Shown: positions 7,123 to 45,847, numbered from the whole stretch's first letter. The stretch is DNA of 62,289 bases, filler included, from Hausera hauseri (GCA_046269625.1; 9 parts of 9 records of this genome joined end to end with filler, not necessarily neighbours in it); one strand, 5' to 3'. The notes: generated by a model not told the origin, from the sequence alone. Program-made: numbers and translations.

Positions 7123-7870
7123 CTATTCAGTCTTATTACGGGTTAGGCGTTGTGTGCCATCAAAGAATTTTTCTCTACTGTACGTATTGAACGTTACTCT
7201 GTGTGGCTTACTTGATAGATTTGTACTGGGTTGTTGAGCGATGTTTTGTGATGGGGGTGATAGCGAAGATGAGTCAAGCAAGAAAGGAGATGAAGGTTGT
7301 GAGCATGTTGACGGAGATAGAGACGAGACGGATAGAAAAGATGATGATAATTGAGTGTGATTGAGTAGTGATTTTTGCAATGGCGCAAAATCGTTTAGAA
7401 AGTCAGTAGAGGTGTTAGCTGAGTCTGAATTAAATGTAGAATGGTTATCTGGAATGTCTTTAATGAAAAAAGCAGGCTTTAGATTTGAAATGTGGACGCT
7501 GTACGGTTTATCTTGGCGTAAAATTGTTGTTGTGTGAGATGAAAGATTTAGCAGTTTGTACGGGCCAACGTATTGAGGTCTAAAACCTGAAGGAGATTGA
7601 TCTTTTAACCACACAAACTTGGCGAAGTTTAAATCCTTTGGAATGTAGGATTTGTTATGATTAAAGAGGCGACAGAATGAATCTGAGTTGACCTCGACGA
7701 AGTGAGATTGTGCTGCATGAACGTTTTCGTCTGCAGGATTGTCATAGAGATTAGAAAGCTCAAATAAGGCTCTAATTGGAGTCCCAAAAAGTGCTTCGGC
7801 TGGAGCGCAATCGGTAGTGGTCGAAGGTGTGTTGCGCCAACCTAGTAGTACAAAAGGTAGAATGGACGTC
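7123..7870 (-). pseudogene. Integrase C-terminus (GPY/F module) with Ser-rich tail, out of frame with pol
   Basis: LPFVLLGWRNT, APAEALFG, YVGPYK, VHISNLKP. Confidence 0.85.
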
Positions 7871-10096
7871 CTGTACATCTTTACGCATTGATGGCCAAAT
7901 GACATAACGCTGAAGCATGCGAAAAGTAGCATTCGAACCTGGATGATGAAGTGAATGAGTATGAACAAAAGCTGGCTTTTGAAAGGGTGGTGCTAGGATA
8001 ACCTTTTTATTGCCTGTCATAGACGTGTCAAAAGCTATTCCATCAATGATTTCGTAGGATTTGAAAGAACTGAGTAACTCAACAGATGGTTGATTGGCCT
8101 TTAAGACTTTAGATGAGAAAATCGGTTCAACTGTAATGGATCCAACCGACCTCGATAGAAAGTCAGCTACCAAGTTATCCGTGCCTGAGATATATTCCAA
8201 AGTAAAACTGAACGTTGATAGGTATGATATATGTCTCTCTTGCCTTGGTGATGGCTCTTTTAACGACATGATGTGCAGCAGAGGCTTATGGTCAGTTTGA
8301 ATGACGAATGGGCGAGAGAGAAGTAAGTGTTTGAAGTGTTTTACTGCCAGAACTATGGCGAGTAACTCGCGATCAAATGTGGAGTAACGGCTCTCAGGTT
8401 GAGTTAATTTCCTAGAATAAAATTCTAATGGCTCGTCGACGCCATTAGAGATCTGGTGTAGTACAGCACCAGTAGCTGTGGTTGAGGCATCGGTTGTAAG
8501 AATAAGATCTGCCTTGGGTTTCGGATAAGCCAGTATTTCTACGGTTTTAAGACCTTCGCGCAAATGATCAAACTTGGTTACCAAATCAGGAGTCCAGTGG
8601 ATCAACTGCCTCTTTTTTCCTGAAGATAAATGTGCGAAAGGTGCCGTAAGCTCAGAGCAATGAGGCACGTATTTGTGGATGAAATGGAGTGTGCCTAGAA
8701 AACTTCTCATGTCAGTGGTAGTTGTTGGTAGAGTTATGTTCTTTAATTGTTGTAGTCGATCCGGTTGTGGAGAGTGGCCGTTAGGAGTGATGACGTGGCC
8801 TAGAAAATTAACACGATTTTGAAAGAAATGACACTTGGCGAAATTGACTTGCAAATTGCTATGATGTAATCTGTGAAAGATAACACGAAGGTGTTCTTGA
8901 TGTTGTTTGACAGACGTAGAGGCAACTAGTATGTCATCAATATATGGATGAGCAAAATCTAGGCCTGAGAGTACAGTATCAATGTGCCGTTGGAAAGTTT
9001 GAGAGGCACTACGCAAACCAAATGGCATAAAGATATATTCGTAAAGGCCAAATGGAGTAATGATAGCAGTTTTTGGAATATCATCAGGTGCAACAGGAAT
9101 CTGATGATATGCTTTATGCAAGTCAATTGTGGAGTACGTGTTAGTGTTGGTAAGGCTGTGCAGGATGTCATTTATAAGCGGTAAAGGATATGCATCCATG
9201 ACCGTTAGATTATTTAACTGCCGATAATCACCGCATGGTCTGTATGTGCCATCTTTCTTCGTCACAACATGCAAAGGCGAAGCCCATGGTGATTTGGATC
9301 GTCGAATAATGCCCGCTTTTTCGAGTTCGTTGAACTCTGATTCAACGGCTTTTCGTCTACGAGGTGACAGTGGTCTGACCTTTTGTTTAATAGGTCTTTG
9401 GTGTTCGGTGACTATGTGATGATATGTTGCAGAATGCGGTTTGAAATTTATGTCCTTCTTAAGAGTGGGGGAAAAAGAAGTCTTAATGTAGGATTTAAGA
9501 TCAGAATCTAACGATGAGAATGATGACGGCATATCATTATAAGAGTCAGTTGCTGTAATCGATGTAGAAATACTAGATGCTTCATTAACGACATTTGATT
9601 CAGCCGAATGTGTCAAAATTGATTTGTTCCCACTTGACGAGATTGAAAATATAGATGAAATGTTAAATGCGTTGTTGTCAACCGATGAACAAGATGTCGC
9701 ATTGACATTTGAACAAGCTGAGGAAGACAAAGTTTTCGACTGGTCTTTTGGTAAGTATTTGTTAGAATTGGCAGTGAAGTCTCTGCGCAGAATGCATTTA
9801 TGCCTGCAGTCGACTAACAAATCGTACGCAGCCAAGAAATCGGAACCTATTATGGGCGATCTGGTGTTTGTTATGTGAAAATTCCAGGAAAATTTTCCTG
9901 GTAGATTGTAGAATGAGAAGGACAGCTTTGTGGTACCTACAATGTTCAAAGGTTGACCAGAGGCTGTGAAGAGTAGAGGAGAGAGAACTGTGTTTGATGT
10001 AGGAGCGAAAGACAAAGGAAGAAGTGATAAGTCAGCTCCTGAATCAATAAGGAAATCTATGTGTGATGTCGCTCCAAATAGCAGATCAGCTTTCAA
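7772..10096 (-). CDS. pol: Pol: aspartic protease, reverse transcriptase, RNase H, start of integrase zinc finger
   Basis: FLIDSGA, SPWASPL, RPCGDYRQLN, MPFGL, YIDDILV, TTDAS, DRELLA, TDHKPL, ADFLSR, HSLHHPG. Confidence 0.95.
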   Translation of the reverse strand: MKADLLFGATSHIDFLIDSGADLSLLPLSFAPTSNTVLSPLLFTASGQPLNIVGTTKLSFSFYNLPGKFSWNFHITNTRSPIIGSDFLAAYDLLVDCRHKCILRRDFTANSNKYLPKDQSKTLSSSACSNVNATSCSSVDNNAFNISSIFSISSSGNKSILTHSAESNVVNEASSISTSITATDSYNDMPSSFSSLDSDLKSYIKTSFSPTLKKDINFKPHSATYHHIVTEHQRPIKQKVRPLSPRRRKAVESEFNELEKAGIIRRSKSPWASPLHVVTKKDGTYRPCGDYRQLNNLTVMDAYPLPLINDILHSLTNTNTYSTIDLHKAYHQIPVAPDDIPKTAIITPFGLYEYIFMPFGLRSASQTFQRHIDTVLSGLDFAHPYIDDILVASTSVKQHQEHLRVIFHRLHHSNLQVNFAKCHFFQNRVNFLGHVITPNGHSPQPDRLQQLKNITLPTTTTDMRSFLGTLHFIHKYVPHCSELTAPFAHLSSGKKRQLIHWTPDLVTKFDHLREGLKTVEILAYPKPKADLILTTDASTTATGAVLHQISNGVDEPLEFYSRKLTQPESRYSTFDRELLAIVLAVKHFKHLLLSRPFVIQTDHKPLLHIMSLKEPSPRQERHISYLSTFSFTLEYISGTDNLVADFLSRSVGSITVEPIFSSKVLKANQPSVELLSSFKSYEIIDGIAFDTSMTGNKKVILAPPFQKPAFVHTHSLHHPGSNATFRMLQRYVIWPSMRKDVQDVHSTFCTTRLAQHTFDHYRLRSSRSTFWDSN

Positions 10097-10182
10097 CAGA
10101 AAGACTGCAGAGGCGGTGTTGAAACGGCCAGTAGTTTAAACGATATTGCCTGTACCAGAATGTGCCGTGGCATCTGGTGGCA

Positions 10183-13099: not shown

Positions 13100-14332
13100 C
13101 GAGGGTCGTTCAATAAGTTTTTTGCCCTCATATAAAAATAATTGAGTAAATAAGTTTAAACTCATATTTTAGTAGTCTTTCTCTACATAGTCGCCGTGCA
13201 AATTTATACATTTCTGTAAGCGATATTTTAGCTTCCACAGACCATTTTTCAAGTGTGTCATCTTAGCCTGAAAATCACTCCTCCACTGTAAAAATGACCT
13301 CGGCGTCTGAATTAAAACGCCTCCCATTCAATGGCTACTTCATTTTCGAAAGAGAAAGAAGTCAGAAGGCGCCAGGTCAGGTGAATATGGCGGGTGTGGA
13401 AGTAATTTAAATCTCCCTTCTGTGCCGTGTGGACTGGAGCATTTTCAATCAAAAGGTGTATGCCTTTGGTAAGTTTTCCACGACGCTTCGCTTTCAGAGT
13501 CTCACGAAGTTTTATCAGCACACCTCTAAAATAGTCCATTGTGTAAGTTAGGTATTCAGTGAGGATTGCGCCACTACAATCTCAGAAAACTGAGAGCATG
13601 ACCTTCTTTGCAGATGACTGCACATAAGCCTTTTTGGGAGGTGGAGAATCATTATGCTTCCATTCTTTGCTCATAATTTTGGTCTCTGTATCAAAGTTGT
13701 AGACCCAACATTCATTCATTGCCACTAAACGATCAAGAGTCCTCTTCGTTGTCTTCACAAAGGACCAACATTGTGGATGCACAATCAACGCGTTGCTGTT
13801 TTTGGAAAGGAGTCAGTAACCTTAGAACCCACCGTGCAGAAACCTTAGAGAGGTAAAGATGATCATGGAATATGGTGGGTATTGACCCAGAGGATATGCA
13901 AGTTTCAGCCATAATAGAATTGATGGTTATTCTTCTATCATTCATCACCAGATCTTCCACTTTTTTAATCATGTCATGGTCAACTGCCGAACGTGGTCAG
14001 CCTTCTTTTAGCTCGACTTCTGGACTTGTGCGTCCACATTTGAGATGTCTCTTCCATGTTTCTATAGTGCTAAAGAATGTAAAATTATCACCATATACAT
14101 GAATCATTTCATCATAAATCTCAGAGGCTTTCAGTCGCTTTAAATGGAAAAACATTCACTTTTTCGAATGCATTCATTTTTACTCATTTTGAATTTGATA
14201 TCTCCTAAATTCTTTCACCTGGAAAAACAAAATTTACAAATTAAGTTCATAAGACATGGACACATTATATAAAATTTAGTTGATTTATCTTAACTATTCC
14301 TATGAGGGCAAAAACTTATTGAACGACCCTCG
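13100..14332 (-). mobile_element. Full-length, decayed mariner DNA transposon (1.23 kb)
   Basis: TIRs CGAGGGTCGTTCAATAAGTTTTT(T)GCCCTCATA at both ends, flanking TA at 13098-13099 and 14333-14334; transposase remnants SARWVLRLL, NECWVY, ENAPVH and YSPDLAPSD. Confidence 0.95.
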
Positions 14333-15214: not shown

Positions 15215-17470
15215 CAGTTTTCCTCCTTTGGACATTTTGTTACTTTGTACGAACTCAATAATTTGCTGAATAATCGTCTTCCCCGATATTAGAGTTCTTT
15301 GTCGTTCAATCAGTTGTTCGAGTTGTGGTTTTTTAGTGTGATGATTGCACTTGTTTTTGTCTTTAATCTTGACAGTGTGTCGGCGTCGATGTGTTTATTA
15401 ACCGGTTTGTATTAAAATTCAATGTTATATCGTGAGATTTCCTCGATCCAATGGTTTAATCTACATGTTGGGTTATTAAATCGTCCTTTTAATGTTGTAA
15501 CTGCTTTATGGTCGGTTATTATTATAATCTTTTGTCCATAGACATAGACATTAAAATGTCGTAATGCTTCTTTTACGGCTAACGTTTCTAGTTCGGTAAC
15601 TAAATAATTCTTCTCTGCTTTCTTTAACAAGCGTCCTCCATAGGCTATTGGATGTTCTAATTCTTCGTCTTCTCGTTTTTGAGCTAATTCGTATACTATG
15701 CCTTTTTTACTTGCATCTGCTTTAATGATGAATGGTAGATTAAAATCCGGGTATCTTAATACTGGTTCGCTTGTCAAAACTTTCTTCATTTTATCGAATG
15801 CTTTTTGTTCCACTTCTGTCCATCTCCACTTAGTTCCTATTTTGAGTAGGCGGTATAATGGCGCGTTAATTTTTGAATTGTCTGGTACATAATTGGCATA
15901 ATACCCACATAGGCCTAACCAATGTCCTAACTCTTTTTGATTCTGTGGTTCCATGCAGTCAGATATTTTATTGATCAGAGACTTATCTGGCTTTGATCCT
16001 CCTTCTCCAATTATATGTCCCAAGTATGATACTGCGTTCTGCGCCCATTTACATTTCTTTGGATTTAGTTTCAATCCTGCTTGTTCTAGTCGCATGAGCG
16101 TATCTTCTATGTCCTTTAAATACTCTTCTGTTTTTGATGCTATCATCACGTCATCTAAGTACGCGAATGCATGGTCAAGTCTCATAAGCATCTTATTCAT
16201 CATCCTAGTAAAAATATCTGGTCCTGTGGTGATGCCAAAAGGCATAACGTTAAATTCGTATACGCCATCATGTGTTTTAAACGCTATCTTATATTAATCT
16301 TCTTCTTCGATTTTCACTTGCCAATATTTCAATTGCAAGTCGAGAGTAGTAAACCATTTTGCTTCTGATAGTCTGTCTAAAGCTTTCTTTACTAATGGTA
16401 GGGGGAACGAGTCTTTCATCATCAGTGTATTTAATGCGCGGTAATCTATACAAAACCGATGTTTCGTGGTTCCTTTCTTCTTAACCATAAGTATAGGTGA
16501 GTACAATGATCGATAACTTGGTCGAATTATGTCGGCCTTTAACATTCGCTCTACTTCTTTAGTTATATCCGGTCTCAATGAGTGAGGAGGCGAATACCAC
16601 TTGGGCATTTTCTGTTCTAGGTCGATATTGTCATTTGAGCCGGGTTTCTTCCTCAATGGAATTGTTAATTTTAGAGCCTTTGCTCTGCCTATGTCTTCTT
16701 CATTTTGCGCTATTATCGAATGGAATTTACACAATAATTAGTAGAATTTGCAATACGCTTCGGGAGAGAATTTTGTCTCAACATGAGGTGGAAATTCAGC
16801 ACACTTGTATGGTTTCTCCGCTATTGTCACTGCCAATACTCTACAAGTGTGACCTAAAGTAGTGTTAGCGTGCAATCTTACTGGAATTGGTGCATTGTTC
16901 ACTAATCTGATAGGTATTCGTCCCGTTACTACTCTATATAAAATATTGCTAAACATATTGTTTGGATAGATATTCTCTTGAGGCTCGAAATATACCGGTA
17001 AATCTTTGTCTTGACGAATTTGAGCAAAAATTATCATTTTGGTTATAGGCGAAATGTCTTCATCTACCGGAATCCATACTTTGCCCGATTTCCTTTCTTT
17101 TATTATTTTTGTCCCTTTTATTGGTTCAAGCTCAGTTAATTTCCCGTTGTTCACATCGATTGCCATGCCTGACATTTGTTTTAATACATCGCAACCTAGT
17201 ACTACATCGTCTGTTAACTGGTCCATTATCGCAAATTCGTGTTGAAGTGCTTGGCCTATCAGATAAATGGTAGGTGTCTATTTAAACTTCGGCTTCGATG
17301 CTTGCCGAAGTGCTCCTACGCTACCTGGGTCCGATGATGCTGGTAGGCATGGCTGGTCTCGCAATGTGGTTGGTATAGATTCATATTTTATAAATGATTT
17401 TTCCGATCCTGTGCCGATTAATGTGTACACTTCCCAATCTTTGATGTGTATTTTAGCGAAAGGTCTCCCT
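15215..17470 (-). pseudogene. pol: Gypsy pol: protease, dUTPase-like linker, RT, RNase H
   Basis: TLIGTGSEKSFI (degenerate DTG), VVLGCDVL, RFCIDYRALN, FTTLDL, MPFG, YLDDVMI, ADAS, ELETLA, TDHKA. Confidence 0.92.
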
Positions 17471-18139
17471 TCTGCTACTGTTCCGTAGCAATTTAACACT
17501 ATCTTTGACTGTTTTATAGTAGAGACTCTATGTCTATTTATCGTTATTTCTGGCGATGAAATGATATCTTGCCTTAATTGTCTTAATTCTCCGTTTGGAA
17601 ACAAGTCGTTATTCGTTATCTCAGTAACGCGACTATCAATGAGCGGTAGTGAATTTGAAATTGAACACAGTTTCGCGTTCTCCCGGATCGTTGATTTTGA
17701 TTTTATGTGACACGGTATCCTTTTTGAGTACAATATTCCGTGGTCGTTTTCGGATGGTCTTTGGTAGATAACATTCATTTTCCGTAGTACTCCATATTGT
17801 TTTGTTTTTTCGTAAGGATCTTCGTAATTAATGGGTTTTTGATAGATTTCGGACCGACATGATACGATTGATTTGCGGTCGCAATCTTCATATATTGGTG
17901 CTGTTGGCGGCATGATGGGCAATGGCGCATTAATCACTGAGTACATATTGTGCATCCTCATTCTGGAGCTCACTTTTACTCCCTTAGGCTCGTCATCTTC
18001 TGACTCATTCTTTCGTGTTATTATTGTCTTATTTTTACGTCTATACAAAATCGAGGGCCTTCCTCGTCGTTTGCGGTTATAATACCCGACGTGGCGTTTT
18101 ACGTCATTTTTCCAGCGATTTTCTTCGTAGGTTTTAAGA

Positions 18140-19706
18140 ATTTTTCCAAAGGGTGTAATGATTGCGGTCAAGATTTTGCAGGAAAATCCTGTTAACGTGA
18201 ATATTTCATATCCGTTGATAATGGCTTGGATTACTGCTTTAACTAGCTGGACTAGAAAGTAAATGGCTAAAAATCAAGATGCGGCCTGTCCGAAAATCAG
18301 AAACCTTCCCCAAATCTTATACAATATTTCCGAAGTTATTTTCTGGTATTGATTAGCGCCAAGTAATGATTCCCATTTCGCTTGAAAGCGGGTGTCATCC
18401 ATGACCATTGACATGGCCCAATTCAGTTCATAAATTCGCTGTCGCGGAAATGCTAGAAATTGCCTAAAGGCTTCTATGTCTTTGGGTCTGTAAATTCCTT
18501 TATTGGCTGTGTCCTCAAACTTTTCTTTTGATAATCCTTTGATTAGATTTGTTCTAGTTACCTTGCTAGGGCCTGCGGTTGCGCCTCCATTAGCTAAGCT
18601 TATCCAGTCCATACTGCTCCATCGAAACATGGGCTCACCTAGGCTCGTTTTGCATTCCTTCAGTATCGTCGATTCAGTTGTGTTTGCCAATAATACTCTA
18701 GTGAGTTGCACTGATAGTCTGGGCATGTTCTCATAAATGACTGGTAATTCTTGCATGCATCTTTTCTCTTCTACTTTGATCGGCACGTCTCTTTTTTTGC
18801 AATCGTAAGTTAGTAAAACTTCTCCAGTGACTCCGCCGAAAACACCTTCTTTCATTGGTATAATTGGTGATTCAAATTCTGGGTTGGCATAAATTAAGGC
18901 CAATTTGGTTTTCATGACTTCAGTATCTAATCTGCAGTCATTTGTTATCATTTTATGATATAGCTCTGCTATTCCGGTTTGTCCTTTGTAATAGAAATCG
19001 TCGTCTCGATTTTTGAGGTAATTTTCAATCCGTATGTCTTGCGTTTTTAGATTGTAAATTTTCATGTTGATTTCGGTTTCTGCTACGAAGAATGCCTTGT
19101 AGTTTGTGGCATACATAACTGCGTCACAACGCTAACATGTCCTTCCTAATAAACTTCAACCTATGTGTGTCCGATATCAATATCATCGGTGTGGAATGCT
19201 CTATTACGTCTTCCCTTGATCTCGTATTAGTGTGTAATTTATTTGTGTAGCGTTTTCCGGTTGTCTCATTGAATTTTAACTTTTTGATTTTAATGAAGTT
19301 ACATCCTCTCTTGGAAGGTGGACTCTATACAACGACTAAACGTCGGAACGTACAAGTGCCATCTTGTATGTGAAATGTTTGATTTTCAGTAAATAGTTTG
19401 GTAACACTATGAAACATCGCCTTTAGAGATTTTAATTCAGTTTCGTAAAAATCTACAACTACTATTTCTCCTTCCTTTTCTTTTCCGGTATCATATTTGT
19501 CTCTCACACAATAACATGTGTGCATATTTAGTTTTCCGATTGCGACTTTGTAGGCTCTAATGATCTTTGTTTTTGGGCTTCTAATTACATGCCATCCCAA
19601 ATCATTTTGCCGGTTAATCAGGCTCCTAAACAGTGTTGTCTATCCACATTAACTGGGATTAATGGTGTGGTTGGTTTGATAATTGAAGAATGCCCGTGCA
19701 TATTAC
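18140..19706 (-). pseudogene. env: Chuvirus-like (class III/gB-related) envelope glycoprotein, N-terminus cut by the contig end
   Basis: GEVLLTYDC, CMQELPVIYEN, TRVLL...C...PMF...W, GIY...D and membrane region WGRFLIFGQAAS*FLAIYFLVQLVKAVIQAIINGYEIFTLTGFSCKILTAI resemble chuvirus-type glycoproteins. Confidence 0.75.
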
Positions 19707-22149: not shown

Positions 22150-22470
22150 GGCTACATAGAAAAATGACGAAGGCATCGTGGACAGAAAAACAAGTCAAAT
22201 GAATCTGTTTTGAAAGAAGCTAATGAGGAAAGAAGAATCATTTCCGATGAAAGAAAACGGCAGTCAACATTTAATTTTGGAAAACTTAATAACATAAGGC
22301 AAAATAGATGTTCAGAGAACCAGAGGAAGACAGTGATATAAAATAACAGATGGTTTGACAGCATGGCATGGACAAAAACATTAACAGGTTTGATATCAAG
22401 CACAAGAGATAGGGAGATGTGGAGAGACATGATCGCCAACACCATTAGACAGAACACTTGATGATGAGGA
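22150..22470 (+). mobile_element. 3' fragment of an RTE-like LINE
   Basis: NESVLKEANEER, RGRQ...W, TRDREMWRDMIAN and a TGATGA-type tail. Confidence 0.6.
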
Positions 22471-22483
22471 GGATGATTATACT

Positions 22484-23620
22484 TTAGTGCGAGAATACGG
22501 AAGAACGGGGAGACAACTCCGGTAAGTCATGCGGTAGACGGAACTGCAGAACATGCCCTACGTTATACAAGCTCAATCTTTGTCGTTCCCTGGCGGCACC
22601 TTTACAATCCAACACAGTTTCTCTTTCATCTCCCGGAACTTGATTTACACAGTCTTTTGCATGAAGTGCAACCTGTTCTGTATCGGAGAAACTGGGAGGA
22701 AACTGAAAGACAGGTTCAGGGAACACCTTAGCAACATCAGAAAAATGGAGCCTACTAACAGCCCTGGCCACAGTGGTATACAGGAAATCCAGGTCACCGG
22801 CATTAAATTCTGTTCTGCTAATGAGGGCTCCCGCCGCTCAGAAGAAAATAGATTGATATATTCTCAGGGAACTTTAAGGCCCCGGTGCCTTAATATGTCC
22901 CACTCATTCATTTAGACCTGCTTTCCCCCTTCCTCCTTCCCCTAAAACCCACTTTCCTATTTCTCCATTCCCCTGGTCATGATTACACACTTACTTCCTC
23001 ACCTTCTACCTCCCTATCGATGGTGCCCCAGTGGCCCCTTCCTTGCTTCTCTAGCTTTCCCACTTTGAGATTCCCGTCTTTACTACCTCATCCTTGGACC
23101 CCAATACGGACCCTCCCTCACTCTATGTTTTTCCATCCCTACACCTCTTTTTTTACTCATACTATTCATGGTACTCCGATAGGCTATTTCCCGCGCCTAT
23201 CTTCATCTATACTTTCACTCCTAACCCCCGTTTCCATGCCTTGTCCATCTTGGACTTACCCATTGGCCACGCATGTCCACCTGTGACCTACTTCCACTTC
23301 CTCTATCTACTTCATTCACATGTCGGATTTGGCGGGACAAGGGAGTATCTCTTCTTTATTTCATTATTTTTGCTTGTTTAGTTTAGCTGTAGTCTCTTTT
23401 TAATTTATTTTATTGTATTCATTCATTTATTGTTCTCTAGTTTATAGTTATTCATTTATATTCTTGTAATATTCATTTCCTGGTTATTATTGTTTTTATT
23501 ATTACACTTGCTTTTAGTATTTTTCTTTCACTTTGATATCTTCCAAGGTCCGCTAAATTCGATTGTGCTATTTCTGTGTGTTGTATCGGAAGAAGACTTA
23601 TAGTCGAAACGTCGTCGTCG
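22484..23620 (+). mobile_element. Penelope-like element 3' fragment (GIY-YIG endonuclease plus pseudo-LTR end)
   Basis: CGRRNCRTC, NLIYTVFCMKCNLFCIGETGRKLKDRFREH, GTLRPRCLN; GAAGAAGACTTATAGTCGAAACGTCG at about 23589 resembles a PLE terminal motif. Confidence 0.8.
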
Positions 23621-33649: not shown

Positions 33650-35093
33650 TTGTGGTCGGACTGTGGAGGCGCCCGAGCCCACGGCACCACACTACCTCCT
33701 GTTATAAAATGACACTGTCGGGGCGCAAGCAAGAAGATAAAGCAGAGAAGTGTAGGCGAATTATTAAAAGAAGTAAGTTTTTGATGTGGTTGAAACAAAC
33801 GTGGAAAGAATACGTTTTGTGTGCTATTGCATCTTTGTATGGACAAGGCGTTGAATTTTGTCGACATTCTGTTCTCTGCTGTATTTTCTGAAGGTAACTG
33901 TCATATTTTTCTTAATATATTGTTTGATTGCTTGCTGAGTTGGTTGAGAGGAAGTTAAATTTTGATTTGACGTGTCAGCAGCTTGAGAACAATCGATATG
34001 TCGTTTTGCGTAATGTTTTGAGTTGATGCAGGTTTTGGAGTATCAGGTTGTCATGCAGGTAGAATGGAAAAAGAATTGAAAGAATCGAAAAAGTTTTGTG
34101 TGGATTCAGCTGAAGATTCCGATGTATCATCAACGAAGAATGCAGGTTTTACGTTAGATAGGTGAACGATTTGTTCCTTATCGTTTTTTAATATAGTAAC
34201 TGTATGTGAGGTAACGTTGAGGACTTTAAATGGTCCTACGTAGTTTGGTTGGAAACCAGAGGGTGACGGACTTTTTGACCAAACGAACTTGGAATTAAAT
34301 ATTGAGTCGGGTAAGTATGTTTTATCTCCATGTACTACTTTACAGAAAGAATCCTGGCTTAGCTGAACGAAGTGATTTTGTGCAGACCTAATTGTTTCGT
34401 CAGTTGGTGTGTTGTCCAAGTCAGTGAGCTCGAAAAGTGCCCGAATTGTGGTACCAAAAAGTGCTTCAGTAAGTGCGCAACCGGTGGTGGTAGACGGCGT
34501 GTTGCGCTACCCGAGTAAGACAAAAGGGAGGATGGTTTTCTAATTCTTGAGATTCGGCCAGGATTTTTAGCGAAATCTTGAGAGTGCGATGAAAGCGTTC
34601 TAATAAACCGTTAGACTGGGGATGATATGGAGTTGTGTGTATGTGATTTATGCCCAGTCGATTAACTAAAGATTTGAATAGTTTCGATTCAAATTGGGGA
34701 CATTGGTCTGTAATTATGTAGCGAGGTGAACCGAACCGGCTAATCCAAATCCTTATGAATGAGCCGGCAATGGAGTCAATATTGATGGAGCGCAAAGGGA
34801 CAGCTTCAAACCAACGAGACGCGCGGTCCATCATTGTTAAGATAAATTGGTGACCATTATCGGAAGATAATGGGCCAACGATATCTACGTGAAATGACTC
34901 AAAGCGAGATGTACATGGGAAATGAAATAATGGTGACTTAAGATATTTAGCTACTTTGAACTTTTGACAAGGTACCCATTGCCTAATCCAACTCTGTGCA
35001 TCAAATCTCACTGATGGCCATGTTACGTGGCGTTTGAGAAGGCGGAATGTAGCCTTGGAACCTGGGTGATGCAAAGAATGAACATGTTGAAAT
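33650..35093 (-). mobile_element. CsRn1-like gypsy 3' half: integrase, GPF module, PPT and 3' LTR start
   Basis: HVDIVGPL, DRASRWFEA, TDQ.PQF, YHPQSNGLLERFHR, YVGPFKV, VHLSNVKP; purine tract then TGTGGTGC at 33691, the same LTR start as at 7017. Confidence 0.9.
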
Positions 35094-35193: not shown

Positions 35194-35300
35194 TGGTTTC
35201 CTCTTTATTGACTCCCAGATATCTGCAGGCCCTGAGGAAGAGACAATAGACGCGTCAGAAAGATAGAGACGAGGTTCAACGAAAAGGACTCTACCTTACA
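35194..35300 (+). repeat. 5' LTR, U5 end
   Basis: 35194-35270 is identical to 42820-42896; ends CTTACA immediately before the PBS. Confidence 0.93.
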
Positions 35301-35303
35301 ATT

Positions 35304-35322
35304 TGGTGACCTCCGATGTGAT
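35304..35322 (+). promoter_or_regulatory. Primer-binding site, tRNA-Trp-like
   Basis: TGGTGACCTCCGATGTGAT versus the canonical Trp PBS TGGTGACCCCGACGTGAT; splice donor CAG|GTAAGA follows at 35335. Confidence 0.75.
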
Positions 35323-35517
35323 CTCCACGACCAGGTAAGACAAAATTAGTTTGACTCCTGGTTGTCGGGATCCGTACGGACATCAGAAAGCCCCAGTGAG
35401 TTGCCTGGGCAATTTAAGCCTTACTTAGGGTAAGCATAGTGCACAGGATATCGACAGTCATTGTCTCTTCGCCAGGCCATTTTATTTTGTGTGTGAATAA
35501 GGTTATTTGTTGTTGTT

Positions 35518-37296
35518 ATGGGTCAGTCATTCCCAAAGCCCATTCCCGGTGAAACCCCACGGAATTGGATGGTCAGATGTGATATAACATACTATGTTGA
35601 TCCATATTTGGATAATTTGGCAGGGTGGACCGAGAATATTGCACAGAGACCTCCTTATCCTCGAGAAGGGACTTTTGATCCCGGCTATCTCGCACCCGCA
35701 CATAGAATGATTTTTGTAGGTATAGGGGACCCTAATTTGGATTATGTATACATGGAAGAAGGTTATAAAGTTTGGTATGACATGAAGAAAGTCTGGGACT
35801 CAAGTAATAAAATATATACGCCAAAGTCAGTACTTAAGGCTATACCAAAACCAAAACAGAATAAAAAGGGGAAGAAGGGTTGTATATCCTCCCCTGAATT
35901 AACTACACGTCCTAAAAGGAAACCTGACTCTATTGTCCCTACACCCTGTAATGATCCACATAGATGTCCCCCGTATTCTCCTAACACTGGTCTGAATCAA
36001 ATACCACCTCCTCTATTCCCGTTGCCGTCTTTATACCCCAATTTGGCCGCCCTGTCAATCTCGGAACCAGTACCAGTTGTACCGGTACCTGCTCCAGTAC
36101 CCATAGGCCCCTCGTCATCTGTTCAGCCGACACCTACACCAACACAGCTTGAATCCCAACCTGTAGTGATTAGAGAGGTCAAGGTAGATAGACAAAATAG
36201 AAAAAAGACAAAAGATAAGAAAAAACGTCGTCGAGATCCTAGTCCTAGTGACTCTGATTCATCTGAATCCGAGCTCCATAGTAGTTCGGATGAGGATAAT
36301 GATGGTCCTGGTATTGATCCCCATACTAACATTGCGTGCGTATGGTCTCGTGGGGCAAGTGGAATTAAGACCAGTCCTCCTACAGTAGGGGAACTAAAAA
36401 ACATCATCGATATTCTACCTGACCCCTTCCAAAACCCACTACATTTCGTCGATAGTCTCCTCGGCTGTTCCCGAAATTGTCAGTTAACTGGGGCCGATTA
36501 CAGATTTATCCTACAACAAAAATTAGGGCCACGACATGATGAGGCGGCGATGCTTGATGCGGTACCAGTCCTCAAACCTGAGAGGGACATCCCCCACAAC
36601 ACTAAGGTTAAAGATGAACAGACAAGGCGCAAAACAGTTGAATCAGATTATGCCTGGGCTAAACCAGAAACATTCATTGCCTTAAAAAATGAATTGACTA
36701 AATATCTTGTACAACGCAGACAGGGAAGTGCAGATTTGTCACAAGTCACTAACTGTAAACAAGATAAAGCTGAGACCACCTCTGTATTTTGGACTAGATT
36801 TAAAGAAGTCTGGACTGTGATTGGTTCTATGGACCTTGATGATAATCATGCTAACCCACTCTTCCTCACCACATTCTTGAATAATTGCAGACCTGAGATA
36901 AGAGCCGTTTTGGTTAACCATTTGTCTGGTCGCAATACACTGACTCTTACTAATGCAGGACAGACTATACGTACGTTAGAATCAGATGGTTTATTTGACA
37001 CAAAGTTAAACAAGGCATGTTTGAATGTGAAACAAGGACCTGGTGGGTTCGAAAGGACCCCCAGACGGAAGGGAAAATGTAACTATTGTGGGAAAGAGGG
37101 ACATTGGGCTCGGGAATGTAAGAAAAGGAGAAAAGATATGCATACAGGACAGTATCAGCAAGGACAGACAGGCCCACAAGGCCCACAAGGTTCACAGCAG
37201 CCTGCCCCCAACACTGTTGCATAGCACCAGCCTCACTATCTGCCCCGTTCACATAACTCACAATCACAACAGCTTGACAGACACGAAGATTACTAG
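35518..37296 (+). CDS. gag: Retroviral Gag
   Basis: N-terminal MG, Pro-rich region with PPY and LYPNL late-domain-like motifs, zinc knuckle CNYCGKEGHWAREC; in-frame TAG at 37222 and 37294. Confidence 0.92.
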
Positions 37297-40200
37297 AGCT
37301 GCCCACAGAGCCTTGAAACCCCGACCGTGGCTATGTTGCATCTCTCCTATGCTTCCTGTCTCAACGAGACTCTTCCCATAGTAGAAATGACTGTGGGAGG
37401 AACAGACTATTCGTTCTTGATTGATACAGGTGCTACAATGTCTTCAATGGGGCAGGAGTACGGGGGGGATTTATCTTCACGGTCTGTCAGCTCTGTGGGA
37501 ATTGATGGGGTTCCTTTCACATCTTCTTACACTCCCTTTTTGCCTGTGGAATGTTCTGCTGATGCCTCCTTGAAAACTTCTTATTCCTTTGTTCACATGC
37601 CTGAATGTCCTTTTAATTTGCTAGGACGAGATCTAATGAGTATTTTTGGCTTGCAATTGACTTTTACTGGGTCTAAGATGACTGTCTCCACTAACTCTGA
37701 AAATCTCACTTCTTTTTCCACTCATACACCGTTCAGTGCGCCTAACTTCTCTTTTGCTGCACAGCAGGCACTTTCTTTACCCCCTTCTTTTTCTATTATT
37801 CCTGTGACTCTGTGGGCAGAACACAAAAATGATGTGGGTTTAGTTCAATGTACACCTTACACAGCCACTGTAAAAACCATTAACCCTGTATACATTAAGC
37901 AATATCCTTTATCCGAAGAAAAATCTAAAGGTATTGATATTGTCCTCTCCTCTCTCCTTGAGCAGGGTGTGGTCATACCATGTTCCAGCCCCTACAACAC
38001 TCCTGTGAATCCTGTCAGAAAGCCGGATGGCTCATGGCGTTTCACACAGGACCTGCGGCGTATCAACGAATTGATCGTCCCTGTCGCACCCATTGTACCA
38101 GATGTGCCTTCTATTATGGCCGCTATACCACACAATCACACTTACTTCTCTGTTATTGATCTCTGTTCTGCTTTCTTTAGTGTTCCTGTTGAAAGCCAGA
38201 CGCAGCCTCTGTTTGCCTTCACACACAGGGGTAAGCAATACACATGGACACGTTTACCACAGGGTTACATTGACTCACCTGCTGTTTTTGCCAGCACGGT
38301 TAAGGAGGCCTTGGGCGAGTTGTCCCTTCCCCCGGGTGCGGTTTGCCTCCAGTATGCAGATGACCTCCTGATCTCAGCAGACTCTGTGGAAACTTGCGAG
38401 ACCGCCAGCCTGTCTCTCCTCCTCCTGCTCGCACAGAAAGGATTCAAGGCATCAAAGACAAAACTTCAATGCTGTCTGCCCTCTGTTACCTATCTAGGCT
38501 ACATCCTTACACAAGGCTCAAAGACTCTATCAGCGGAACGTGTCAAAATCATAACAGACACTTGTCGTCCTGCTACCAAACACGCGCTGATGGCCTTTCT
38601 GGGACTTATTAATTACTGTAGACAGTGGATTCCAGACTGCTCACATTATGACAAGTGCCTCAGAACAGCAATAAAACACTCTGACCCCCTCTCTACTCCT
38701 CTCGTCTGGACAGAAGAGATGTTATCTGCCTTCTCTGCACTGAAACAAGCATTGTCTACAGCACCAGCCCTGGGCCTGCCTAACTATGACCTACCTTTTC
38801 ATCTCTGGGTCACAAATCAGGAGGGCACTGCTTCTGGAGTGTTGGCTCAATCCCATGGGGGTGGCATGCGCCCCTGCGCCTTCCTTTCTAAATCCCTTGA
38901 CCCTGTGGTAAGAGGTTTACCTGCGTGTTTACGTGCGGTTGCTGCCTGTGCTCAGATTGTAACAGACGCTGAGAAAATTGTCCTGTCACATCCACTCACA
39001 CTCCACACCTCACATCAAGTTACACACATACTTAAACATTCTAACACACAACACATGTCTGCCCAGAGGAGATCAGGGTATGAGGCCGTGCTTCTCACGA
39101 CTGAAAACCTTACTATTAAGGCCACCTCTTCTTTCGACACTATAGCACACGCTTTACAGAGACTGCAAAATGCACAAGATGATTGTGAAACCTTTGATCA
39201 TGATTGTCTTTCTGCCATTGTTGAAGACACTTCTATTCGATCTGACCTGTCTACCACACCTCTGCCCTCTGGTTCTGTTCTCTTTGTAGATGGTTCCTGC
39301 TCTAAACCTGCTGATGGTGTTTTTCTCTGCGGATACGCCGTTTGTCAGCTGCCGGATGTTGTACTAGAAGCACATTCTCTTCCTTTTTCATCTGCACAGG
39401 CGGCTGAACTTTATGCTCTAACACGCGCTTGCACTCTCTCTGCAGACAAAGATGTTACCATCTACACTGACTCCAGATATGCATTTGGCGTGGCACATGA
39501 TTTTGGGCGGATTTGGGAGTCAAGGGGTTTTACTGCGGCTGACGGTAAACCAATCTCACACTCCTCCCTCGTTAGGGATCTTATTACCGCCTGCCACCTT
39601 CCTAGTTCTTTAGCAATCGTTAAGACTAAGGCTCACTCAGTAGGGAACACTGATGAAATCAGAGGTAACTCACTTGCAGACAGGACGGCTAAACAGGCTG
39701 CTGCCAACGCCCCACTATGTCCCCTAATCAACACCTCCTTAGTCTCAATGTCACCCTTGCTTAGTGCTATCCTACCTGACATTGACCTTAAAACTCTCCA
39801 GTCTTCAGCTTCTCTCACAGACCAACAGTTCTGGAAAACACAGGGCGCTGAGAAAAAGGATGAGATATGGGTGGATAAGTCAGGCAGGATATGTTTACCA
39901 AGACATTGTACGCAGTTTCTCGTCCGCGAATTTCATGGTCCCACTCACCGCGGACGAAGAGGGGTAGTTGAGGATCTAACAAAAACGTTTTGCATTCTCA
40001 ATCTGCATACAGACACACATAACCACTTAGACAAATGTCTCACATGCGCACAGAACAATCTTACTAAACCCGGCGCCTTACATCAACACATACCAACACC
40101 TGATACACCCTTCCAAGAATGGCAAATTGACTTCACACATTTACCAAAACAAGGACCCTACAAATACCTTCTTGTAATGATCGATAAATTCTCCAGGTGG

Positions 40201-40905
40201 GTTGAAGCCTTCCCATGTCATATGGAAAATGCTCGAACAGTAGTGGCTAAATTAACACAGGAAATCATCCCACGATATGGCATACCTGTAGGGCTAGATT
40301 CAGACAAAGGAACACCCTTTACATCCAAAGTAACACAACTACTGTGCAAAGAACTAAAAATCAACTGGCGTTTTCACATCCCATACCACCCACAATCATC
40401 AGGAATGGTTGAAAGGGCAAATCGGACAATAAAATCAAAATTAAGAAAAACAATGCAGGATCTGGGGACGTCCAATTGGTTACAAGCACTCCCCATAGTC
40501 CTAGCAGACATACGAATGACCTCGCAGGTGTCATTAAATCACCTATCACCTTACGAGGTAGTAATGGGCAGACCTTTTCCGATTCCATGGAAGAGGGGAA
40601 TGCACGCTGTGGGAAATGCTGACCTAGATGTACACCTCAATGAGTATGCTGCAGGCTTGATCAAAACCCTAGATAAATATTGGACACGGGTCAATGCTCA
40701 GAAACCTGACATACCCAAACAAAACACGCATTCCTTTAACACAGGGGACATGGTGTTAGTCAAAAAATTAAAAACCTCTTCCTTGAAAGAGCCTTTATAT
40801 AGTGAGCCTGCAGCTGTCATTGCCATAACTCGAACCGCCGTTTCAACTGATCTCTTTCCAGCAGACTCAAAAAAGTCCCCCCCTAACGGCCCTGGTAGAA
40901 CCTAA
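37297..40905 (+). CDS. pol: Retroviral Pol (PR-RT-RH-IN), in the same frame as gag
   Basis: LIDTGA, LLGRD, YNTP, QDLR, LPQG, QYADDLL, FVDGS, AQAAEL, YTDSRYA, WQIDF, SDKG, HPQSSGMVERAN. Confidence 0.97.
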   Translation, partial: SCPQSLETPTVAMLHLSYASCLNETLPIVEMTVGGTDYSFLIDTGATMSSMGQEYGGDLSSRSVSSVGIDGVPFTSSYTPFLPVECSADASLKTSYSFVHMPECPFNLLGRDLMSIFGLQLTFTGSKMTVSTNSENLTSFSTHTPFSAPNFSFAAQQALSLPPSFSIIPVTLWAEHKNDVGLVQCTPYTATVKTINPVYIKQYPLSEEKSKGIDIVLSSLLEQGVVIPCSSPYNTPVNPVRKPDGSWRFTQDLRRINELIVPVAPIVPDVPSIMAAIPHNHTYFSVIDLCSAFFSVPVESQTQPLFAFTHRGKQYTWTRLPQGYIDSPAVFASTVKEALGELSLPPGAVCLQYADDLLISADSVETCETASLSLLLLLAQKGFKASKTKLQCCLPSVTYLGYILTQGSKTLSAERVKIITDTCRPATKHALMAFLGLINYCRQWIPDCSHYDKCLRTAIKHSDPLSTPLVWTEEMLSAFSALKQALSTAPALGLPNYDLPFHLWVTNQEGTASGVLAQSHGGGMRPCAFLSKSLDPVVRGLPACLRAVAACAQIVTDAEKIVLSHPLTLHTSHQVTHILKHSNTQHMSAQRRSGYEAVLLTTENLTIKATSSFDTIAHALQRLQNAQDDCETFDHDCLSAIVEDTSIRSDLSTTPLPSGSVLFVDGSCSKPADGVFLCGYAVCQLPDVVLEAHSLPFSSAQAAELYALTRACTLSADKDVTIYTDSRYAFGVAHDFGRIWESRGFTAADGKPISHSSLVRDLITACHLPSSLAIVKTKAHSVGNTDEIRGNSLADRTAKQAAANAPLCPLINTSLVSMSPLLSAILPDIDLKTLQSSASLTDQQFWKTQGAEKKDEIWVDKSGRICLPRHCTQFLVREFHGPTHRGRRGVVEDLTKTFCILNLHTDTHNHLDKCLTCAQNNLTKPGALHQHIPTPDTPFQEWQIDFTHLPKQGPYKYLLVMIDKFSRWVEAFPCHMENARTVVAKLTQEIIPRYGIPVGLDSDKGTPFTSKVTQLLCKELKINWRFHIPYHPQSSGMVERANRTIKSKLRKTMQDLGTSNWLQALPIVLADIRMTSQVSLNHLSPYEVVMGRPFPIPWKRGMHAVGNADLDVHLNEYAAGLIKTLDKYWTRVNAQKPDIPKQNTHSFNTGDMVLVKKLKTSSLKEPLYSEPAAVIAITRTAVSTDLFPADSKKSPPNGPGRT

Positions 40906-41096
40906 AACATGAAAAGTTGCTCTCACCTGTTTGTGCTCTTTTCACAGAAGCAGTGAATTAACTTAGACAACAGCTGACGTCCTTACAGGGGTCTTCTCTC
41001 TCGGCGTCCCTTGGGGTCTGGCCTGAACAAAGAGGAGACTTGTCGGTGCGTCTGGAATTCACGATCTGCTACCTGGAACACAGAGGGAAGGCAACC

Positions 41097-42420
41097 ATGT
41101 GGTCAGTGACCTGTATGACCACCATCCTAATCATCTTGCTTGGAGCAGGGCTGCCCGCTCAAGCACATCCACATGACAACACCTTCTGGAAGTACGCCAA
41201 CTGGACCGCGAGACAACAAACCAACGAATCATGCTACGTCTGCCATGCTATGCCCACTAGTGTGACCACTTACTCCCTGAGGCCACAGAATGAGACCTTG
41301 AATACCACTCTCCTTGCTGTCAGCCGGACCTGCATTAACCCACGCTGCCGTGCGGGACCCAAATCCGAGTCTACCCTCACACACGGTCATTTCCTGGCAA
41401 AAGATGCACTAAATCAATGCGGCAGCACAACGGTTACTCCAGCAGAAATGCATTCATGTGTAGTTAGAAATAAATTAACGATGGTAACAGAAGTACAAAT
41501 GCAACCCTTCAAGGCCATACTTGGACCGTTTCATCGATTCCCTGTTTGTTTTAAAAGAAAGGGCAATGTGTCGTTAGGATGGAACTCACCATCTTCATGT
41601 GATGTTATTTATCAACCATATGAGCTCAATAATACCTGTAGTACTACGAATTGTTCCGTCCTCGCCCCTAGTGGTAACGGCACCGGTTCGACCCTAGACT
41701 GGTATTGGGTGTGTGGAAAAAATGTGTTTCTGTCTTTACCACAAGGATGGAGCGGAGTTCGTGCCCCCACCACATTTGCTAACTAGGTAGTTCTAGTATC
41801 TCGCCATCCCTTAGGCGCCGCTCACAATAGATCGCGCTCTAAGCGCTCTGCGGACGATGGGTTTCCCCCTCCTGAACATCAGATAGTTTCCCCAGGAACT
41901 AAATTTTGGCATGCAATTTTTCCCCAGTATGGTGTCACTCAGTTGTGGAATCAATTAGAAATAACCCATTATAGATTAGCAACCTATGTAAATGCCACTA
42001 ATGATGCAATTGAGGGAATACGAGGCGAATTGACAGCCCTTAGATTAACTGCCGTACAGAACAGAATGGCTTTGGACATGCTCCTCGCTGAGAAAGGGGG
42101 AGTATGTGCCATGGTGGGCGATACCTGTTGTACTTTTATCCCGGCTAATGATGATGAACATGGTTCCATCTCCTCCGCTGTTGTAAACATGAAAAAGGTT
42201 GCTGAACAATTGCACCTAGACAAACATGGTGCTGTGGGAGGATGGGGCTCCTGGTACAGCCTCTTTGGCTGGAAGACCCCTTATTTTTTATAATCATTGC
42301 TGTTGTAATTATTGGTGTATTTTTCTGTATTTTCTGACCCTGTCTTGTCAGGTGTCTAATGAATCGCGTTTATTCTATGGTTTCCGCTATGAATCCGCAC
42401 TCTCACCCTGACTACATACC
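41097..42420 (+). pseudogene. env: Gamma-type Env with an in-frame stop and a frameshifted anchor
   Basis: Signal peptide, CYVC, TAG 41784-41786, furin site RSKR at about 41835, ISD QNRMALDMLLAEKGG, CX6CC. Confidence 0.93.
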
Positions 42421-42500
42421 TTTTGCCTCTAGTTGTGATAAACAAGATATGTGTTCCGCTGTTAAAATATGATGATGCTTATTCTTAATTAATTAAGCAT

Positions 42501-42896
42501 AAAAGAGGGGAATGTAAGAATATAGTTGATATATCTGCTTTGTGTAACTAACATATGTTTTTTTAAGTGTCACGTACAAGTTATCATTTTGCTTAAATAA
42601 GAGCATTCTGTGTTCTGCCTTTGCTCATTTAACTGTCCTAAATCATGTGCTAAGACTGCTATTTGTTCTGCTGAGGAAACTCAGCCTTGGCTATGGGAGG
42701 GGAGTATGGGAGTACCCTCCTTGAGCACTGGGCTGGGCCTCTTAACTATAAATACCACCACAAATGTTGCTGTCATTCGAGCTTTGTAAGAATAAATCAG
42801 ATTCACATTGAGTTGTGTCTGGTTTCCTCTTTATTGACTCCCAGATATCTGCAGGCCCTGAGGAAGAGACAATAGACGCGTCAGAAAGATAGAGAC
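42501..42896 (+). repeat. Polypurine tract and 3' LTR
   Basis: AAAAGAGGGGAA then TGTAAG at 42513; TATAAA at about 42747; AATAAA at 42791. Confidence 0.93.
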
Positions 42897-43746: not shown

Positions 43747-44969
43747 TTAATCCAAGTCCATATCCATCAAAGTTATTCCACTATTTTCCTCTGAAAATTG
43801 GAAGTATGCTACTCGCCTTTCGGTAATACTCCTACAAACTGGACAGTTCGTTGTTTGATTCGAACAATTTTCACATGTTTTCAGGTGACAGCAAGGTAAG
43901 AAAATAACCTGTGCTACGTCCACATAGCAAATCACGCACTCCAAATCGCGAAGATAAAAATTATCAAGAATATTTCGTTCAAGTTCTCTTTCTTTCTCCG
44001 GAGGAATAAAATTTAAACTTTGACATAATTTGAATACATTTGGTAACCAGTCTGGTTGAGTTTCTGTCCGATATTTTATATACTGTAATATATTTTCTCG
44101 TTTAGTAGGATGTTTTGATAGTACCGATGTAGCCACTGGACTATCTTGATAACATTCATATAGTTTTCCGATATTAAATTGTATTCTGCATTGTCTCTTG
44201 GTGTGTTTATCGAAGATTCTGTTTACTGAGTATTCGCACTTGTTGGTATGTAATATTTTTGGACATCGTTGATCAAGGTTTTCTAACCAATACGTTTCTT
44301 GTAAGCATATAGTACATTTGACATACTGTTTTTCTTCCTTAGATATCAATATTAGTCCTTCTTCGGCTAAATGTTCGATCTCTCTTTTTCCATTGAAAGT
44401 TAATTTTCTCTTTTGTACTGTGTTTGAAATCCAATATGCATTTTCTTCCGCTGTATTATCCGTTGAGTAAATTACCTTTACCGACACTGTTGCGTTATAA
44501 TTCGTATCCTTGTCAAGATCAGGTCTTTTGACAAATGTATCTATGAGCGGTATATCACTGACATTGAGATTTAATAAATAAGGGCAAGTGGCATGCGATT
44601 TCTTATGTGTTTTATTTGGTCGATTTTTCGTTTGTTCATATTGGAATTCTCCTTGGCAATAAATGCATTTAATCTGTCCTGTTATAGTTCTGAATAACCC
44701 GGTTTTGGCATATGCTTGCGCTAGTTCGTCCGGAATAGGCGAATTTGGGAATTTCAGGAACGATATTGTTTTGTTTTGTGCATCTCTCATGGAGTTATCC
44801 AGTACTATAGCTTTGGAGTAGCTTACCAGTCTTTTAATAAATGATGCCGGTCCGAATTGTCTATTCTGGTAGTGCAATATATATTGCGCTATATTAGATT
44901 GTGCGGGTTTAACATATTCGCACTGTTTCGGTGTTCGGAATTCGTATTCTTTGACCTTTGTTATTTCGG
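43747..44969 (-). CDS. iap: Inhibitor-of-apoptosis protein, two BIR domains plus C-terminal RING
   Basis: BIR1 SF..FP...AKTG...KCIYC...H...CPYL; BIR2 RKLTF..LAEEG..VKCTIC..W..H...C; RING CVIC..VIFLPCCH..CENC..CPVCR. Confidence 0.9.
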
Positions 44970-45019
44970 CTAAAATGTAATATATCCAATAACATCGCCA
45001 AATTTACATAAATATTTAT

Positions 45020-45330
45020 TTATAAATCCTTTACAGTATAATAAGCATTTTTATATCTAAATAATGTATTGTTAATGCGACATTTTGGGCATGAAATCTC
45101 GACTGCAAACCACCCTTTTATGCATTGTCGGCAGAATTGGTGTTTACATATGGTTAATTCTATCGGATCCATCGAGCATTCGCTCAAACAAATGGAACAC
45201 TCTTTTCCTAAATAAGTTAAAGTTCCCTTTGGATCATATATGGAATAACTGTTGTCTGCTGTTGTAGTGTAACGAAATATTGAAAATCCGTAATCCAACA
45301 TGTTCGTTCTATTCATCCCGAGGTAAAATC
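45020..45330 (-). CDS. Small C3HC4 RING finger protein
   Basis: CSICL...CKHQFCRQCI..W....SCPKCR. Confidence 0.9.
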
Positions 45331-45375
45331 CTTAATAAGTCAAAATGAACGACTTGTAATTAATTTTATTAACAA

Positions 45376-45816
45376 TTAATTTTCATAATCTAAAAATGTA
45401 TTTAGTTGTGGATTTCTCCACTGTTCCGGCCAACTGCCGTCATCCTCATCAATTACCAATACTATAGATGGCCGACTATCAATATTCAAATATGTGATTA
45501 TTCCTTCTGCAATGTAAAAGTCTACTGATTCGAGGCAGTAAGGGCACCATTGACAAGATCCCAAATACTCCAAGATACACGGCCGACAAAACACATGGCG
45601 ACATGGTAAGATAATCAGGTTATCTGCCACTAATTTAAGGCACACCCAACAAAATGTGCAGGCTCGTCGACAACAAGGGCAGTTACTTTGTTCGTTCAAC
45701 CAAATGTCGATGCAAAGCTGACAATATGTGTGTCCACATGGTAATGTTGTCCTTTCATTCGTCATTCCTTCAAGACAGATGGGGCAAATGTCTGTAATCA
45801 ATAAAACTAACTTCAT
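45376..45816 (-). CDS. Tandem double RING finger protein with acidic tail
   Basis: CPIC..LPCGHTYCQLC..W..CPCCR followed directly by CWVC..LPCRHVFCRPC..CPYC; SIVLVIDEDD tail. Confidence 0.92.
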   Translation of the reverse strand: MKLVLLITDICPICLEGMTNERTTLPCGHTYCQLCIDIWLNEQSNCPCCRRACTFCWVCLKLVADNLIILPCRHVFCRPCILEYLGSCQWCPYCLESVDFYIAEGIITYLNIDSRPSIVLVIDEDDGSWPEQWRNPQLNTFLDYEN

Positions 45817-45847
45817 TAACTATTACTATATTTCATTACAAATTTTA

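Follow-up and report, generated by a model that had tools for sequence, protein, structure and literature searches.

We analysed a window of 62,289 nucleotides, made up of short contigs with N-spacers between them, in which positions 15221-19706 form one short contig flanked by two such spacers. A retroelement fragment fills this contig. Read on the minus strand from 19131 to 15412, a single frame of 1240 codons with no frameshift within it passes through a fusion glycoprotein, a membrane anchor, a 215-codon stop-free tail, a protease, a reverse transcriptase (RT) and an RNase H, and is broken by five stops, at 18274, 17278, 16738, 16294 and 15412. The features are given below in reading order, with reference to X1, the one sequencing run listed as containing the sequence (0.31 of the sampled words; no RNA run was listed), which may represent the source sample or species.

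19130..19591, minus strand: further envelope ectodomain upstream, out of frame with the part below and carrying internal stops; the contig end at 19706 cuts off the rest
19130..19135, minus strand: frameshift within the envelope of the present copy; the homology switches frame here, and X1 contigs vary in length here
18115..19131, minus strand: C-terminal half of a Monjiviricetes/gB-type class III fusion glycoprotein (PF24664), with one stop at 18274
18214..18306, minus strand: membrane anchor, residues 276-306, with a Kyte-Doolittle peak of 2.15, followed by a weaker hydrophobic stretch
17473..18114, minus strand: open linker, likely the cytosolic tail of the envelope, holding PTAP at 17907-17896
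17167..17472, minus strand: aspartic protease (RVP), single copy, with a stop at 17278 and a degenerate active-site motif
16486..17166, minus strand: protease-RT spacer, the place of a dUTPase-like domain in the planarian element Burro, with a stop at 16738
16009..16485, minus strand: Ty3/gypsy-type reverse transcriptase (RVT_1) with YLDD and a stop at 16294
15412..15822, minus strand: RT connection and RNase H, with a stop at 15412; an integrase would lie past the contig end

Three of the stops (18274, 17278 and 16294) interrupt domains and are therefore taken as signs of decay, not as gene ends. A preliminary description of this DNA had begun the frame at 19116; its frame and its point stops were recovered, but 19116 is an internal ATG, and the envelope extends further upstream in a different frame. 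There, the translation of 19591-19130 matched the envelopes of related database proteins by BLASTP (P0011 aa 284-393, E 1.9e-6; P0018, E 9.8e-6; P0004 aa 258-408, E 0.002), and the same piece searched alone gave no Pfam match. Because envelope homology continues upstream in the other frame, a frameshift must lie near 19132. Its five stops, the frameshift and the degenerate protease motif leave this copy inactive. Among the differences to X1 contigs listed within the frame, a selected subset, 29 of 33 fell at codon positions 1 and 2, which fits neutral decay measured against a conserved family and is not relied on here.

The glycoprotein had been described as chuvirus-like, and both profile and fold comparisons bear this out. 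Pfam Monjiviricetes_fusion (PF24664) matched residues 2-339 at E 1.2e-38, spanning profile positions 271-605 of 653, and the envelope is 27-34% identical to the envelopes of env-pol polyproteins, in which an anchor occupies the corresponding place. The structural comparison with herpesvirus gB that had been proposed for 18140-19706 succeeded on a relative and failed on the copy itself: the studied half-ectodomain modelled poorly (pLDDT 54) and had no significant fold match, gB heading the list and recurring in third place at E 0.38-0.48, whereas the whole natural relative P0011, 30% identical to the studied envelope over 331 residues, was modelled from 87 aligned sequences at pLDDT 81.5 and matched herpesvirus gB at E 6.4e-14, in a fold search that returned 113 matches at E <=0.001. 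These comparisons support a predicted class III, gB-like envelope, a call that belongs to the family through the P0011 model and not to the copy's own model. Other searches were uninformative: a PDB sequence search with the envelope half gave seven matches (best E 0.09), a word-based search with residues 1-700 scored 0 of 5939 candidates, none of eight pattern matches in viral contigs was confirmed, and the best ESM Atlas feature score was 0.82.

Behind the linker, the Pfam order RVP, RVT_1, RT_RNaseH_2, RT_RNaseH is that of Ty3/gypsy (Metaviridae), and the earlier assignment of the polymerase region to gypsy, from its protease-RT-RNase H order and gypsy-type RT and RNase H, was upheld. RVT_1 was matched at residues 883-1041 (E 3.7e-31) and RT_RNaseH at 1129-1235 (E 3e-27), with RT_RNaseH_2 at E 7.2e-31; the RT-RNase H region is 37-45% identical to gypsy counterparts, and its named best matches are gypsy polyproteins. 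The protease scored marginally below the Pfam cut-off (RVP, residues 554-655, E 7e-4, 20.3 bits against 20.7) and was recognised at E 2.9e-8 by a profile built from the proteases of 17 relatives; the active-site motif pattern found no match in the studied copy. The spacer aligns with that of the relatives, and its top five BLASTP matches among 132 proteins were env-pol relatives (E 5e-9 to 6e-6); it gave no Pfam dUTPase match, and a profile comparison with three dUTPases returned a probability of 0.8%. As a lineage marker the protease-RT spacer was rejected, seven ordinary gypsy proteins having scored above the studied copy; it is not diagnostic because ordinary gypsy elements share the domain. 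The contig ends about 190 bases past the RNase H; gag, the first hydrophobic segment, the integrase and the LTRs fall beyond its limits.

We then asked how widely an envelope precedes the protease in one frame. A protein search of 1.84 billion representatives returned 421 matches, and among the best 150 of these a protease follows the envelope within one ORF in 14, including nine of the top ten, as counted with a profile built from 17 of these relatives; Pfam alone found a protease in 12 of 19 matches scanned and an RT in five. All seven further long ORFs, two of them read from DNA, run from envelope through protease, RT and RNase H to integrase. The search for intact copies with a continuous glycoprotein-protease-RT ORF, which the preliminary description had proposed, thereby yielded 12 unbroken envelope-protease-RT-RNase H ORFs, among them the DNA-derived L001 (3703 aa) and L002 (3426 aa), neither of which contains a direct repeat of at least 40 bases in the sequence as fetched. 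In the relatives an integrase follows the RNase H, and eight have a hydrophobic segment before the ectodomain as well as an anchor after it. At least two protease domains are present in 11 of the 22 proteins with a protease match, many relatives having two to five. Upstream of the envelope, in the same ORF, Gag CCHC knuckles occur in nine relatives (P0005, P0010, P0012, P0013, P0030, P0160, P0161, P0162 and L001), with Retrotrans_gag in P0013 and a weak Ty3 capsid match in P0030. The ancestral Env-Pol polyprotein proposed earlier is thus correct in its fusion of env to pol, but because Gag knuckles precede env within the ORF of these nine relatives, the ancestral product reads better as Gag-Env-Pol.

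All 215 codons of the linker at 17470-18114 are open, while the two alternative frames contain 17 and 18 stops, and none of 100,000 base shuffles was stop-free (mean 14.2 stops). It had been said to lack a capsid and a zinc knuckle, and we likewise found no CCHC motif, no Pfam Gag match at E 10 and no match to 12 Gag-side (upstream) regions taken from relatives (E 0.11 at best). Envelope tails in relatives range from 84 to 345 aa; 13 of 16 contain a YP motif, compared with 5.0 in shuffles and a count reached in 0 of 2000 shuffles, while PPxY is not enriched (2 of 16, with 181 of 2000 shuffles as high). The tail of the studied copy has PTAP, without YP. Such proline motifs are known late domains. 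By sequence comparison, the order is GAG-ENV-POL and the tail is, on this reading, a predicted variable spacer and not Gag.

This order is unusual but already published. In Burro, env is flanked by gag and pol in one frame (Arkhipova and Yushenova 2019, PMC6431247), and a survey confined to invertebrates, in its available portions, describes a non-monophyletic set of GAG-ENV-POL elements whose ENV is of gB type, from flatworms, nematodes and bryozoans (Chary and Hayashi 2026, PMC13524379). An undescribed order or lineage is consequently not supported, and the element is best read as a divergent copy of a Burro-like multi-copy family. The studied frame shares with Burro an env that precedes protease, RT and RNase H in one reading frame, and an envelope of the mononegavirus fusion type, the class III fold being modelled on P0011. 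As described in the accessible parts of its source, Burro/GYPSM1 likewise combines an env matching mononegavirus fusion glycoproteins with protease, spacer domain, RT and RNase H in many copies, and in Dugesia japonica it persists as decaying fragments with stops and frameshifts (PMC6431247), a state that the studied copy resembles. Burro in the strict sense, according to the same excerpts, exceeds 30 kb, carries BIR, BCL2, MATH and ankyrin accessory domains and has a planarian host. Some of these traits recur in the nearest relatives, with a Bcl-2-like domain before env in P0011 (E 0.001) and ankyrin in P0154, whose ORF of 4844 aa compares with 4,873 aa in Burro1. From such Burro-like relatives the studied copy differs in its divergence (envelope 27-34% and RT-RNase H 40-45% identical, with long branches) and in having one protease where many have two to five.

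Endogenous retroviruses of nematodes, reported by Sacco et al. in 2022, are said to have a continuous gag-env-pro-pol ORF. Like the studied element, they have a captured glycoprotein of an RNA virus followed by a metavirus pol; the nematode envelopes in the supplement of PMC13524379 (four Caenorhabditis latens rows) lack the motifs of the flatworm group in the part available. The Platyhelminthes C1a GAG-ENV-POL errantiviruses with HSV/gB-type ENV in the available text have the same order and an ectodomain between two hydrophobic segments, and their flatworm rows in the survey (8; 16/18 places) are from Macrostomum, Prostheceraeus and Schmidtea (PMC13524379). In supplement 2 of that paper, as available, YQESD (three rows) and YATNY (two rows) appear only in the Schmidtea category; YATNY is present in the studied envelope and YQESD in P0004, P0011 and P0018, and Schmidtea elements 1 and 5 have envelope motifs in common with the group of the studied element. 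A link to Burro, which was compared by description, is therefore likely from the shared anatomy and these two five-residue motifs. The accessible portion of PMC13524379 does not say whether env and pol are read in one frame, and those of PMC10309623 and PMC11410931 contain nothing further on gene order.

Two other known types were considered and set aside. BEL/Pao elements with a chuvirus glycoprotein (Dezordi et al. 2020, PMC7642597, in the part at hand) draw on the same Pfam envelope family in a different retroelement family; here the RT-RNase H is gypsy-type and env precedes the protease, whereas the BEL/Pao-type matches P0039 and P0076 have env at the 3' end, behind DUF5641 and integrase respectively, and fall on the opposite side of the envelope tree. 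Mite ENV-GAG-POL elements have ENV_F where this envelope is gB-type, and the linker gave no Gag signal.

Phylogenies of the two halves of the polyprotein were then compared. The envelope tree (41 relatives, 35 of them from the best 150 matches) separates 21 envelopes from a group of 20 rows (SH-aLRT 87), to which the studied envelope and every one of the 16 env-then-protease proteins belong. In the RT trees, which left out P0163-P0167, the 12 env-pol ORFs group together by their RT-RNase H regions (clade support 95/89). The most careful of these trees, which covered 25 of the 115 ordinary gypsy rows and included neither the two other RTs of the window nor a named Burro sequence, recovered the studied RT as sister to the 12 at support 28/39; in FastTree (130 rows) and in a quick tree it lies outside the clade, on a long branch. 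A tree constraining it with the env-pol clade scored higher (p-AU 0.72). Its identity to env-pol relatives is 40-45%, no higher than to ordinary gypsy elements.

These trees bear on whether the arrangement instead has an independent or recombinant origin, in which a Burro-like envelope was combined with pol from a different gypsy lineage and an env-before-pol lineage arose separately. The long and weakly supported RT branch, the equal identity to ordinary gypsy elements and the non-diagnostic spacer would all suit such an origin, as would the lack of monophyly that the survey, in its available portions, reports for GAG-ENV-POL elements (PMC13524379). Yet the careful tree has the RT as sister to the env-pol clade and monophyly was not rejected; the seven best matches to a combined protease and spacer query among 132 proteins are all env-pol relatives; and the long branch is explained by decay and odd composition. 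We regard a separate lineage as unlikely. Much less probable still is that the linker is itself a short or divergent Gag, making the order ENV-GAG-POL as in two mites. Some 215 aa would be long enough for a capsid, and ENV-GAG-POL with a short GAG has been reported in Medioppia and Oppia, so far as the available text goes (PMC13524379), but the mite elements carry an F-type ENV and this one is gB-type, the linker has no CCHC, Pfam Gag match or likeness to the Gag regions of relatives, and those relatives place Gag upstream of env and leave a tail of 84 to 345 aa in the linker's position.

The least credible reading, by now largely refuted, is a one-off chimera or assembly artefact, in which an endogenous chuvirus-like glycoprotein came to lie beside an unrelated gypsy pol. 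The contig is short and the assembly fragmented, no X1 contig bridges the junction by itself, and the other 136 of the 150 best envelope matches, which include stand-alone envelopes, fragments and the 3' envelopes P0039 and P0076, have no protease behind. Against a chimera stand the 215 open codons across the junction and the same order in nine of the ten nearest relatives; together with the 12 unbroken ORFs, the latter confirms the earlier view of an in-frame envelope-protease-RT fusion that is no one-off nested insertion. None of the three outcomes that the preliminary description had named as fatal to it appeared. X1 argues in the same direction. In that run, 15,232 contigs map to the studied contig and cover all 30 bins, with 1% running on into unlike sequence; 867 are at least 99% alike and 5850 less than 90%. 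Overlapping X1 pieces at about 80-90% identity tile 18297-17411, and across 17260-18300 the 2684 X1 contigs show no indel at a 5% share and 11 joints, each confined to a single contig. Taken as they stand, the X1 sequences point to a multi-copy family that would have the same layout throughout. The contig is thus very probably a decayed internal fragment of a Ty3/gypsy element whose gB-type env shares one frame with its protease, RT and RNase H; it likely belongs among the Burro-like GAG-ENV-POL elements of flatworms or is a sister to them.

In an intact member of such a Burro-like family, one polyprotein would be made and its Gag would stay cytosolic. The first hydrophobic segment would act as an internal signal that threads the ectodomain into the ER, and the anchor would stop transfer, so that tail, protease, RT, RNase H and integrase would face the cytosol. 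This predicted cytosolic return of tail and enzymes follows from established membrane-protein topology, from which tethering of the enzymes to the envelope is predicted as well. Envelope trimers at the budding site could carry Pol along without a Gag-Pol frameshift product, crowding might promote dimerisation of the protease, which would then release the enzymes, and the proline motifs of the tail (YP in most relatives, PTAP in the studied copy) may recruit host budding machinery. A 1:1:1 ratio of Gag, Env and Pol is a difficulty for any single-polyprotein scheme. In P0004 and P0007 the envelope is preceded by just 130-150 residues, and some members may therefore express Gag separately.

The host setting was considered from the rest of the window. 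Another of its contigs carries a vertebrate-type retrovirus (Gag_p30, RNase_H, TLV_coat), and other contigs are AT-rich and invertebrate-looking. This combination points to a mixed sample, as might come from a fish parasite. Tentatively, the host may be such a parasite, for instance a neodermatan flatworm, with the retrovirus contig as carry-over from its own host; this is likelier than a vertebrate and, if true, would extend the known range. A deeply diverged, abundant Burro sister lineage living in a vertebrate genome is decidedly improbable; if true, it would be a fish gypsy element with a gB-type envelope fused before its polymerase and a PTAP budding motif in the tail.

Since the studied copy is dead and partial, its value is that of a range record once the host is named. 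The family as a whole confirms a rare enveloped-retroelement design on a new divergent family, with Gag and Pol on the predicted cytosolic side of a class III fusogen. Multiple proteases (11 of 22 proteins) and YP tails (13 of 16) apparently go beyond the available portions of both papers, whose figures may show extra proteases. L001 and L002 offer compact natural examples for studies of topology and processing.

Between the envelope membrane anchor and the protease of env-pol polyproteins, the tail sequences were enriched in proline motifs. YP occurred in 13 of the 16 tails of env-protease proteins, [LIVM]YP in 10 of 16 and YPx[LI] in 8 of 16, each exceeding all 2000 shuffles, and P[ST]AP was present in 2 of 16 (11/2000 shuffles as high). 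These YP-type and P[ST]AP motifs resemble late-domain motifs.

A profile built from the relatives' own proteases revealed 2-7 protease domains each in 11 of the 22 proteins having a protease match (P0154, P0010, L002, P0007, P0004, P0160, P0157, L001, P0008, P0009 and P0013), a count that is not of fully independent cases, as P0008 and P0154 share one cluster and P0009 and P0157 another. Most of the multiple domains lay in the envelope-RT interval, and some lay 3′ of integrase. In six relatives (P0004, P0005, P0020, P0157, P0161 and P0162), the ORF extends unbroken beyond integrase, with hydrophobic segments in the first four, whereas P0161 and P0162 have Ig-like domains there; this distal part is possibly a second membrane protein. 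The env-pol polyprotein P0005 carries the label of a Flavobacteriaceae MAG protein, and is likely eukaryotic DNA binned with bacteria. Separate downstream ORFs with an RNase_T exonuclease domain accompany the two env-pol ORFs read from DNA:

L001 12085-13473: RNase_T, E 1.1e-3
L002 10617-12083: RNase_T, E 1.4e-5

Elsewhere, the window holds further mobile-element and domain-bearing pieces:

7123-10135 and 34051-35093, minus strand: ordinary gypsy pol fragments without envelope, related to each other
~13100-14300 and ~22400-23000, minus strand: decayed pieces, presumably mariner-like and Penelope-like, labelled by eye
35194-42896, plus strand: vertebrate-type retrovirus on its own contig, with Gag, PR-RT-RNase H-IN, env and end repeats
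within 43747-45819, minus strand: unbroken BIR + RING (IAP-like) ORF, 418 aa (Pfam)
49090-62289: degraded polinton-like pieces with PolB, dUTPase-like and ATPase-like ORFs
55815-56237: ATPase-like ORF, recognised by eye
57788-58228: dUTPase-like ORF

The retrovirus encodes a Gag with zf-CCHC and a weak Gag_p30 match (Pfam, E 0.003), a single open PR-RT-RNase H-IN frame of 1202 aa and a TLV_coat env that a stop splits. The two ends of its contig carry identical 77-base repeats. The element may resemble fish epsilon-like elements. It suggests that vertebrate DNA is present in the sample.

A second ORF with RING-like cysteine patterns adjoins the IAP-like ORF, and the pair could be viral or mobile cargo. 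BIR domains are also reported for Burro, the planarian giant gypsy elements.

Among the polinton-like pieces, the protein-primed PolB match reached E 2.3e-7 (Pfam), and the PolB region is present in two copies ~8.4 kb apart, at 73-82% identity.
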